From Candidatus Woesearchaeota archaeon (lineage in GTDB: Archaea > Nanobdellota > Nanobdellia > SCGC-AAA011-G17 > ARS1403), in contig CAYIWL010000002.1 of the NCBI GenBank assembly GCA_964367085.1, positions 1 to 42,027 of the forward strand: a stretch of DNA of 42,027 bases, written 5' to 3'. The position numbers were made by a program, and so were the translations under genes. Of this stretch, positions 1,186 to 2,972 are shown piece after piece. The notes under the pieces are model-generated. The model was not told the DNA's origin. It made no database searches and was given only the letters and a program-made list of their open reading frames with translations. The stretch's first letter is position 1, and the number at the start of each line of letters is the position of its first letter.

Positions 1186-2972
1186 AAAAGAGGATTTTAG
1201 AAATAGATCCAGCCAAATGGTATGATGTAAAAACTCTTTCTATAAATGGATTTTTAGATGAAGGATTTCGATGGGAGCGCTATTTTTTGCATAGGGGTGA
1301 TATGATCTTGGGTGGGTCGCTGACTTATTATCTAAAGGGATTAAACGGCATATCCTATGACAATAAGGATTACATAAATACTTTCACATTAGCAGACGTT
1401 GTTGGGGATAACCTTTTTGATTATTTAAAACAAAGCCCGCAATTGGTAACTACTGCTGTTTTCGACGGAACACCAATGCAATTCGTATTTACTGGTAAAC
1501 TAAAATCCTTGCAGCACTTAATAAATGAACAAACAAAAGAACAGGATGCTTTAGCAATCTTACCAAAATTATCTATTGATCCCAGCATAATAGCCTATAT
1601 AAACTATAATTCAGAAAAAGCTGTTGAGCAGTTAGCAGAGGACACTGGATTAGATCCATCCTATGTAGAAGCATTGATGTATAAACTTTTGCTAAGAAGC
1701 GACCTCACAACAGAAAGGGCAACCGCATTAAAAAAAAGGATAGATGACTTAGGAGAAGAAGATCAACAAACAAGAGCACATTTCACGCCAAGTATAAGTG
1801 TTTTAAGATTTTTTGGCGACAGAAAATCAGAAAATCAATCTAGAAAGGTTCAATATAGTATCCAGGAAGCCATGAAGATATCCGGGAGGCCATATGAAGA
1901 AATCTCAAGAGCGATTGATGCTGGAGTGTTAAAAGTTCGAGTTATCTCTCCAGAAAGAACTGAGAGGATCCACACATATTCTATTAGCAGCTCTTCTCTA
2001 GAAAAATTCTGTAAAAATGGATATGTTCCTCCAATTATGACTAGAAGGGAAAAGATATTAGCAAAAAAGAAGAAACCTGTTTTTCGATCTAAAAATGAAG
2101 AATGGATGTCTTTTAGGTCTTTATTGAATTCTCCATTGTCTATACTGCAGAGGGATATTGATTCAAACGAGATTCTTACAAAAGATGAAGAAGTTGAATT
2201 ACTTCATAGGATAAAAGAAGGGGACACTTTGGCACTGAATGATTTAGTGGAAGCCCATATCCCTTTTCTTGTTGGCATGGCTCGACAATATGATTGGAGG
2301 TCTCATAATTTAGAATTAAAAGATTTAGTGCAAGAAGGTGTTTTTGGCTTATGCGAATCAGCTCATAGATGGAATCATGAAATGGCAGTAAATAAAGAAA
2401 CAGGTAAACCTTATAATTTTCAAAGTTACGCTATATGGTGGGTTAGAAGCTTTATTGGAAAAGCACTTGTACATGGGCAGGCAGTGTCAGAACATAATGA
2501 TGTATTTAATAGTGGAAGCAAAGTATTAAGAATTTATAATTTCTTGGCGCATAATTTTGAGAGATTTCCTACACCGGAAGAAGTAGCAAAGGAAACAAAA
2601 GTACCATTGCATATAGTAAATAAAATCCTTAGCCACAATAAAAGGGGTCTTTCTTTTGATAGAAAACTCAGAGAGGATGAGGATGAAAACCTTTACAGTG
2701 TAACGCAAAATGAACAAGCTGAGGAAGAATCCAATGAAATATTTAGAAATGCAGACAGGGAAGATGTTAGAGCCATAATAGATGAATTGCCTAATAGAGA
2801 AAAAGAGATATTAAAACTATATTTTGGAATCGGCACAGATCATCCATTAACACTAGCGGAAATAGGGAAGATGAAAGGATTGACAAAAGAAAGGATCAGG
2901 CAGATAAATGAGAAAGCATTGGATAAATTAAAGCATCCTTCTAGAATAAAAAGATTAGAAGAACTTCTTTAA
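1164..2972 (+). CDS. sigma-70 family protein (RpoD-like regions 1.2-4.2) with ~335-aa N-terminal extension
   Basis: The C-terminal ~267 aa read as canonical sigma-70. Motifs: [18 protein letters not shown] (1.2); [16 protein letters not shown] and [10 protein letters not shown] (2.1-2.2); [17 protein letters not shown] (2.3-2.4); [15 protein letters not shown] (3); [49 protein letters not shown] (4.1-4.2). The N-terminal part contains an HTH-like stretch, [28 protein letters not shown]. Confidence 0.85.
   Translation: [602 protein letters not shown]

Follow-up and report, generated by a model that had tools for sequence, protein, structure and literature searches.

The window analysed here, a 42,027-nt stretch from a Candidatus Woesearchaeota archaeon (contig CAYIWL010000002.1, assembly GCA_964367085.1), carries near its start a gene for a bacterial-type sigma-70 protein. 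Sigma factors on one side and TBP, TFB and TFE on the other mark the textbook divide between bacterial and archaeal/eukaryotic transcription initiation. The open reading frame (ORF) is a real gene for a protein of the sigma-70 family, lies on a DPANN chromosome and belongs to the bacterial sigma-70 genes that this group acquired horizontally and that had been reported there before. An intact sigma factor under purifying selection in archaea means either that the sigma fold has been reused for a regulator that is independent of RNA polymerase (RNAP), or that the archaeal polymerase is engaged; we tentatively favour the former. The class itself was described in 2021; what is added here is the protein's architecture, its partner gene and the evidence on promoters. 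Castelle et al. (2021; Front Microbiol, PMC8204110) reported sigma-70 genes (fam00359) in DPANN genomes, particularly those of Woesearchaeota, excluded mis-binning, did not find anti-sigma factors and stated that the mechanism of the DPANN sigma factors beside TBP, TFB and TFE 'remains unclear'. Because the phenomenon had been reported there, the novelty implied in an initial annotation of this DNA was overstated. The window gene resembles the published ones in being of the sigma-70 class and linked to archaeal markers, with mis-binning excluded and no classical anti-sigma factor; it may belong to fam00359. Unlike the present analysis, the published account is one paragraph without architecture and mentions neither the N-terminal domain nor the partner nor the clade-specific insertion. 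No functional follow-up of the DPANN sigma-70 genes was found in the literature.

The initial annotation had read all sigma-70 regions, in order, in the C-terminal half of the ORF. This holds for regions 2, 3 and 4, which all exceed their Pfam cut-offs (Sigma70_r2, PF04542, aa 361-430, 33.0 bits against 24; Sigma70_r3, PF04539, aa 453-521, 39.1 bits against 25.3; Sigma70_r4, PF04545, aa 539-591, 60.3 bits against 24.1). Region 1.2 is weak, with 17.2 bits against a cut-off of 22 for Sigma70_r1_2 (PF00140, aa 330-354), but still aligns with region 1.2 of SigA in the PDB alignments. In a phmmer search of the PDB, aa 320-601 matched Firmicute SigA (8x6f, 7ckq and 7l7b) end-to-end and without large gaps (E 6e-42 to 1e-37). 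The AlphaFold model of the ORF has a mean predicted local distance difference test (pLDDT) score of 70 and superposes on the sigma chains of solved holoenzymes (Foldseek E ~1e-13); the low pLDDT of the 3.2 linker is in keeping with its extended form. Region 2 retains DLVQEG (2.2) and Y..F..YA.WW.R (2.3), of which DLVQEG and YAIWWVR align with SigA, as does the region 4 motif TKERIRQI...HPSR. The same comparison corrects two details of the initial annotation: the insertion in region 2, put at ~12 residues, is 8 residues long and lies between regions 2.2 and 2.3, and the 2.4/3.0 motif is not conserved, RTIRIPVH at this boundary having been lost and another 11-residue stretch standing in its place. 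The top-ranked NCBIfam models for the ORF are RpoD, SigB and RpoS (up to 160 bits). Every NCBIfam equivalog cut-off (354-800 bits) was missed, and the best RpoD/SigA-type match, PRK09210, reached 160 bits against 572. Like the bacterial group 1/2 factors (SigA/RpoD, RpoS), with which it shares 30-37% identity over aa 320-601, the window protein has regions 2, 3 and 4 in order behind a weakly matching region 1.2, keeps DLxQEG, YAxWWxR and TxERIRQIxxKALxKLxHPSR and has the fold of a holoenzyme sigma. Unlike them it has no region 1.1, carries a 320-residue extension and the 8-residue insertion, has lost RTIRIPVH, falls below all RpoD and RpoS equivalog cut-offs, and is encoded by an archaeon behind an archaeal-type B recognition element (BRE)/TATA box with no bacterial RNAP in view. 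MzaA of the MZA anti-phage system also combines a long N-terminal region with a C-terminal sigma-70 domain (NCBIfam 137 bits, PADLOC 77 bits over the sigma part). However, the cut-off is 800 bits, only aa 325-601 match, the N-terminal parts differ and the other MZA components were not found nearby. Membership in a defence system was rejected, as the match to MzaA is only a generic sigma match (PADLOC, with the neighbours tested).

A HMMER search of 1.84 billion cluster representatives returned 57,127 sigma-like proteins, few of them close. The close members are P0002 (80% identity), P0008 (40%), P0009, P0012, P0011, P0021 and P0086, to which a hidden Markov model of the N-terminal domain added P0098 and P0123. 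P0009 (375 aa) and P0012 (380 aa) are shorter and do not cover that domain, and the remaining matches cover aa 320-601 only, at 30-39% identity. A JGI metagenome scan with the N-terminal domain gave three short loci and a word-index search with its profile one extra protein. An 80%-identical protein at NCBI, MEK6856573.1, is recorded as 'sigma-70 family RNA polymerase sigma factor [Nanoarchaeota archaeon]'. Across the family, whose members are 24-80% identical, the following residues are invariant or nearly so: D387, E391, G392, G395 and L396 in region 2.2; F419 (invariant) and A423, W425 and W426 (nearly) in region 2.3; S497 and E504 (invariant) and L510 (nearly) in the 3.2 linker; and L542, E546, G555, L564, E566, G568, T574, Q580 and L589 in region 4. 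The residue equivalent to Escherichia coli Q406 was considered as a sign of lost core binding; we dropped this argument because a close bacterial match, P0010, has N at that position (DLINEG).

The 8-residue insertion is present in P0002, P0008, P0009, P0012, P0021, P0086 and P0098 and absent in P0011 and P0123. In a neighbour-joining tree of 100 sigma domains (P0123 not included) the insertion-bearing members form one clade, and the sigma domain of P0011 groups with bacterial sigmas of ~285 aa, which we take to be primary sigma factors of the Bacteroidota/FCB (Fibrobacterota-Chlorobiota-Bacteroidota) group. P0011 (L087, 889-2493) and P0123 have a more canonical region 2.3-2.4 and share the N-terminal domain and the partner gene with the other members. 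The sigma part has either evolved at widely differing rates from member to member or been exchanged. Because its sigma domains range from less to more derived, the family would be well suited to comparative biochemistry. The best GTDB representative loci among the matches listed come from Latescibacterota, Krumholzibacteriia, KSB1, Calditrichota and Gemmatimonadota, that is mainly from the FCB group, and from several uncultured alphaproteobacterial metagenome-assembled genomes (30-37% identity); these taxa are those of the listed matches, and the search patterns bias which of them appear. The GTDB scan gave only bacterial sigmas among the matches listed and therefore no taxonomy for the window. 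Judging by these sequence matches and the placement of P0011, the short primary sigmas of the Bacteroidota/FCB group are the likely donor type, as a donor candidate only, although they are no more than 30-37% identical to the window sigma.

No match to Sigma70_r1_1 was found in the ORF at E <= 0.1 (Pfam), and an extension of ~320 residues stands where region 1.1 would be. Region 1.1 is auto-inhibitory, and sigma-70 fragments without it reportedly bind promoter DNA on their own (work attributed to Dombroski et al. from 1992). The extension begins with a domain for which neither Pfam nor the PDB holds a relative; Y20, G50, S52, L76 and L94 are invariant in it (P0002, P0008, P0011, P0021, P0086, P0098 and P0123). 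The HTH-like (helix-turn-helix-like) segment that follows has three helices in the AlphaFold model. Further downstream, aa 231-281 match the PADLOC model mad1 (E 2e-4, 19.6 bits). The model of aa 1-320 gave a 57-residue local match to the excisionase (Xis) of mycobacteriophage Pukovnik (4j2n; Foldseek prob 1.0, TM 0.77 on the target, E 0.5), which we place at aa 230-285 because of the mad1 match and the helix-helix-hairpin-helix pattern of the model. Pfam gave no match for this winged helix in the window protein. The Xis-like assignment, drawn from profile and model matches, is suggestive and not significant. The domains of the extension are probably DNA-binding and include one or two modules of the HTH or winged-helix (excisionase-like) type. 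The initial annotation had described the C-terminal half correctly in outline and had missed both this conserved extension and the gene upstream.

That gene, the partner, encodes what is probably a multi-HTH protein: its relatives match the HTH_17, mad1 and excisionase models. A homologue lies immediately 5' of the sigma gene at eight further loci (L003/L169, L085, L170, L087, L171, L088, L172 and the P0123 locus). L003 and L169 are one locus from two assemblies and L171 is a near-identical copy of the L087 gene pair on a separate contig, so that, window included, nine distinct loci carry the partner-sigma module. At most of them the partner overlaps the sigma start; the exceptions are L088, with a 4-nt gap, and the P0123 locus, where the genes abut (its DNA was not read). 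Partner and sigma are translationally coupled. A C-terminal motif, PLFALAxQLxVDPSEI...LPIPSV..EDAEKIR, is conserved in the partner. No partner homologue precedes the sigma gene of P0098. At L173 a nucleotidyltransferase gene lies immediately 5' of the sigma gene. We rejected the idea that the partner is a paralogue of the sigma N-terminus, finding no similarity between them. The TATA-like box of the module lies ~29 nt 5' of the ATG at 118. Its promoter is nearly identical to that of the L35Ae gene (AGAAATCTTTTTAAAG) and is kept in L169, a relative with 85% nucleotide identity. From the BRE/TATA-like box we therefore infer that the module is transcribed by the archaeal machinery.

Ratios of nonsynonymous to synonymous substitution rates (dN/dS), computed against L169, place both the partner and the sigma gene under purifying selection (Table 1). 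Signal peptides and transmembrane segments are absent from both proteins. Genes 3' of the sigma gene are not conserved among the family loci. The 591-aa gene directly downstream in the window was rejected as a member of the module, being conserved only in the 85% relative and unrelated to the downstream gene of L172. This ORF is under very strong purifying selection and has no match in Pfam, NCBIfam, PADLOC or PHROG; by eye, two minimal nucleotidyltransferase-like motifs can be made out (e.g. GSLFRGEKANDIDVYIIVDD).

Table 1. Positions of the partner-sigma module, its parts and other features in the window. dN/dS was computed against L169; scores of marker genes are given against the NCBIfam cut-off.
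Feature	Position	Strand	dN/dS	Remarks
Archaeal-type promoter of module	68..96	+		TTTATATA 70-77; BRE-like AGAAA 82-86; TATA-like TTTTTATA 89-96; ATG 118
Partner gene, 355 aa	118..1185	+	0.20	No confident family; 3' end lies 22 nt inside sigma ORF
Sigma-70-family ORF, 602 aa	1164..2972	+	0.156 (whole)	N-terminal extension followed by sigma regions 1.2 to 4
Family-specific N-terminal alpha/beta domain, aa 1-130	1164..1553	+	0.076	Conserved in full-length family members; pLDDT 80-91
Helical HTH-like segment, aa 136-187 (tentative)	1569..1724	+		Weak MarR-like match phrog_1687, E 4e-4 to 2e-3
Xis/HTH_17-like winged helix, aa 230-285 (suggestive)	1851..2018	+		PADLOC mad1; helix-helix-hairpin-helix in model
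Sigma region 1.2-like segment, aa 320-354	2121..2225	+		Pfam r1_2 below cut-off; SigA alignment
Sigma region 2, aa 357-438	2232..2477	+	0.096	Lowest dN/dS among sigma parts; Pfam r2; SigA alignment
8-aa insertion EMAVNKET (E406-T413)	2379..2402	+		Between regions 2.2 and 2.3; gap against SigA, HMMER alignment
Sigma region 3 with acidic 3.2 linker ('finger'), aa 453-531	2520..2756	+	0.15	Pfam r3
Sigma region 4, aa 533-602	2760..2969	+	0.18	Pfam r4; 22-residue 4.2 HTH near-canonical against SigA
591-aa ORF, directly 3' of sigma	3037-4812	+	0.029
purB	4809-6305	-
L35Ae	9306-9563			102 against 85
Archaeal uL16/L10e	9875-10402			194.7 against 91
rad3/XPD	29333-31159			287 against 247; contains HBB
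Diphthine synthase dph5	34926-35642			226 against 114
Toxin-antitoxin-like genes	8052-9150, 16303-17106, 23011-24043, 13338-13715, 14397-14729, 28950-29237
Stretch without ORF of at least 90 aa	10860-11751			892 nt
Lipoprotein signal peptidase II (Peptidase_A8); stand-alone response-regulator receiver	21949-22344; 25072-25431
OapC, OapB, small GTPase	32988-34418
PKD-domain protein gene	35652-35999			Divergent, upstream of tandem paralogues
Three tandem paralogues	36053-39074			233, 255 and 519 aa
rve-family integrase gene	40655-41506			Region 40590-41600

The initial annotation had also left room for an assembly or binning chimera, in which a piece of bacterial DNA had become attached to an archaeal contig. 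The same groundwater sample was also assembled independently (ENA ERZ1292627, Hain_H51_01um); that assembly covers positions 1-4924 of the window with one mismatch and ends there, and therefore the sigma genes are linked to the archaeal markers by the window alone. Both assemblies begin at base 1 and the independent one ends at 4924, which makes both points assembly breakpoints, possibly due to strain variation; the co-occurring 85% relative (L169, L003) has ~2x coverage. The exact PurB protein is, moreover, not on record elsewhere. On the other side, the break at 4924 falls inside purB, whose ORF runs through it without interruption, and alignments of the fumarate-lyase family pass the junction (aa 461 of PurB), reaching aa 467-471. 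Composition is the same on both sides, as the initial annotation had held: tetranucleotide usage of bases 1-4812 correlates with that of the rest at r = 0.978, within the range of other segments (0.964-0.982), compared with 0.72-0.86 for low-GC bacterial controls, and GC content is 0.31-0.40 across the whole window. The archaeal markers named in the annotation pass their NCBIfam cut-offs in the case of L35Ae, L10e, XPD and diphthine synthase; 'Nip7' rests on a PUA domain only. OapB and OapC are further archaeal genes in the window, which also encodes this PUA protein. Scans for tRNAs and Rfam families gave no match.

Promoters agree with this picture. We scored AAAnnTTTWWAWA before genes with an upstream spacer of at least 45 nt (operon-first genes). 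In the window 23 of the 31 such genes (~74%) have a BRE/TATA-like box with its first T at -27 to -32 from the ATG (e.g. 9255-9275, 3000-3010 and 21560-21600), against a background of 12% and 0-20% for low-GC bacterial control loci. The distance of 27-32 nt between TATA box and ATG is a hallmark of archaeal promoters and implies leaderless or very short-leader mRNAs. Pairs of sigma-70-type -35/-10 elements are not enriched in 20 kb, a small sample (72 found, 69 +/- 7.1 in shuffles), no exact TTGACA occurs in the 5.3 kb of intergenic DNA of the window, and intrinsic terminators are below the expected number. The gene 3' of the sigma operon, like the operon itself, has an archaeal BRE/TATA box at the standard distance. 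L087, L088 and L172 show the same spacing, and other family members lie beside TYW3 and DUF483 behind promoters of the same style. With a close relative filed under Nanoarchaeota at NCBI and mis-binning excluded for the class (Castelle et al., 2021; PMC8204110), the chimera is close to refuted.

Among the three options of the initial annotation (a repurposed DNA-binding regulator, an effector aimed at the RNAP of a bacterial partner, and a chimera), the first fits best. Our tentative preference is that the sigma factor was domesticated as a sequence-specific DNA-binding transcription regulator. The protein would bind DNA via region 4.2, region 2 and the added winged helices, its co-translated partner would act together with it, the archaeon's own genes would be the regulated targets, and no canonical initiation-factor role for a bacterial RNAP would be involved. 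The locus offers a concrete, testable unit: a two-gene module with an archaeal promoter and a partner that is potentially an unknown regulator. Several points weigh against such a regulator. The extension and the partner are assigned HTHs on weak matches (E 2e-4; Foldseek E 0.5), and that the genome lacks a bacterial RNAP core is an assumption based on general knowledge of DPANN. In addition, parts related to the holoenzyme are kept down to 24% identity, namely DLxQEG..GL of region 2.2, the aromatics of region 2.3 and the acidic 3.2 linker. These residues are not obviously needed for DNA binding alone and therefore argue for some contact with an RNAP.

Such a contact is the core of a second explanation, which we regard as unlikely but credible. 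The protein would be a hybrid initiation factor, with region 2 on the clamp coiled-coil of archaeal Rpo1 and the 3.2 linker in the cleft of the TFB B-reader; it would direct or modulate a regulon, and the partner would be a co-factor or an anti-sigma factor. The clamp coiled-coil is where sigma, NusG/Spt5 and TFE universally dock, but the clamp and flap surfaces of archaeal RNAP are unlike the bacterial ones. A hybrid factor would be consistent with the retention of core-binding, DNA-melting and 3.2-linker residues throughout the family (to ~24% identity) and with the low dN/dS of region 2; by analogy, the coupling to a conserved partner recalls bacterial anti-sigma/sigma operons. Against it, sigma-70-like promoter elements show no enrichment and the 2.4/3.0 motif is lost in the insertion clade. 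Castelle et al. (PMC8204110) did not settle the mechanism and detected no anti-sigma factor, which leaves space for a hybrid factor, yet TBP, TFB and TFE are present in DPANN. More doubtful still is the specific version in which the sigma factor, seated on the archaeal clamp or cleft in place of TFB/TFE or beside them, confers promoter specificity and the partner is the 'missing' anti-sigma factor or a co-factor. If the hybrid explanation were true, DPANN archaea would possess a hybrid bacterial-archaeal initiation mechanism.

A sigma factor serving a bacterial-type RNAP, encoded elsewhere in the genome or belonging to a bacterial partner that receives the protein, is very unlikely. The 4.2 recognition helix and the 2.3 melting residues are near those of primary sigmas, and the sigma domains of P0011 and P0123 are even more canonical. 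However, to our knowledge no DPANN genome carries a bacterial RNAP, and the 42 kb hold no RNAP genes, bacterial or archaeal, in line with the remark in the initial annotation that the protein has no obvious bacterial RNAP partner. The RpoD and RpoS equivalog cut-offs are all missed widely. Export to a bacterial partner, the effector option, found no support in that neither protein of the module has a signal peptide or transmembrane segment. According to Castelle et al. (PMC8204110) the known DPANN hosts are archaea, and TBP, TFB and TFE are mentioned for DPANN with no bacterial RNAP beside them.

The module might instead derive from a DPANN virus, provirus or other mobile element, integrated or as a remnant, that redirects or tunes host transcription; we consider this rather improbable. 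A 2025 Nat Commun study (PMC12647753) described divergent rpoS-like genes in DPANN viruses, one of them in a prophage, and these resemble the window gene in being divergent, of the sigma-70 family and DPANN-associated. They differ, by description only, in being viral auxiliary genes from acid-mine-drainage samples, whereas the window gene has housekeeping flanks. Two assemblies break off at the contig end on which the module lies, mobile elements typically encode HTH domains of the Xis-like kind, and L088 and L172 contain many small unknown ORFs, a faint ANT match and a LAGLIDADG gene. Yet the flanks of the relatives are chromosomal and archaeal in style: purB/C/E in the window, MetAP at L172, lysine biosynthesis genes and purA at the P0123 locus, and TYW3, DUF483 and DOT1 at L173. 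The family loci measured have 33-36.5% GC, and in composition the module matches the remainder of the contig. In the window it has no capsid, terminase or integrase gene next to it. An IMG/VR scan with the full-length family alignment gave sigma-domain matches only, at no more than 37% identity, and none of the 80 loci kept reaches the N-terminal half; the N-terminal domain alone was not a viral query. To some role outside all of these explanations, that of a domesticated regulator included, we give a small chance.

Other features of the window include a dense set of toxin-antitoxin-like genes: three HEPN/nucleotidyltransferase units (two pairs and one fusion), a PIN protein, a MazE/AbrB-like protein and a UPF0175 protein. 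The stretch without a longer ORF has no Rfam match and contains short ORFs of 70 aa, of 33 aa (starting MYSVHASERAKKFL) and of 88 aa (minus strand), which look like a decayed toxin-antitoxin pair. Two more families typical of Bacteria, the lipoprotein signal peptidase and the stand-alone receiver, fit the theme of bacterial systems in DPANN of Castelle et al. (2021; PMC8204110). If the clustered OapB and OapC genes mark an origin here, a chromosomal replication origin may lie nearby, e.g. in the spacers 32711-32987 or 34419-34602. Of the three tandem paralogues, the first and third are weakly DUF3108-like, and all share a repeated 49-nt segment (36194, 36916 and 38415). Copies of the direct repeat GCAACATTGAAATGCA lie on either side of the integrase gene, ~50 nt before the starts at 40655 and 41605, and could represent the ends of an insertion sequence or a duplicated target site.

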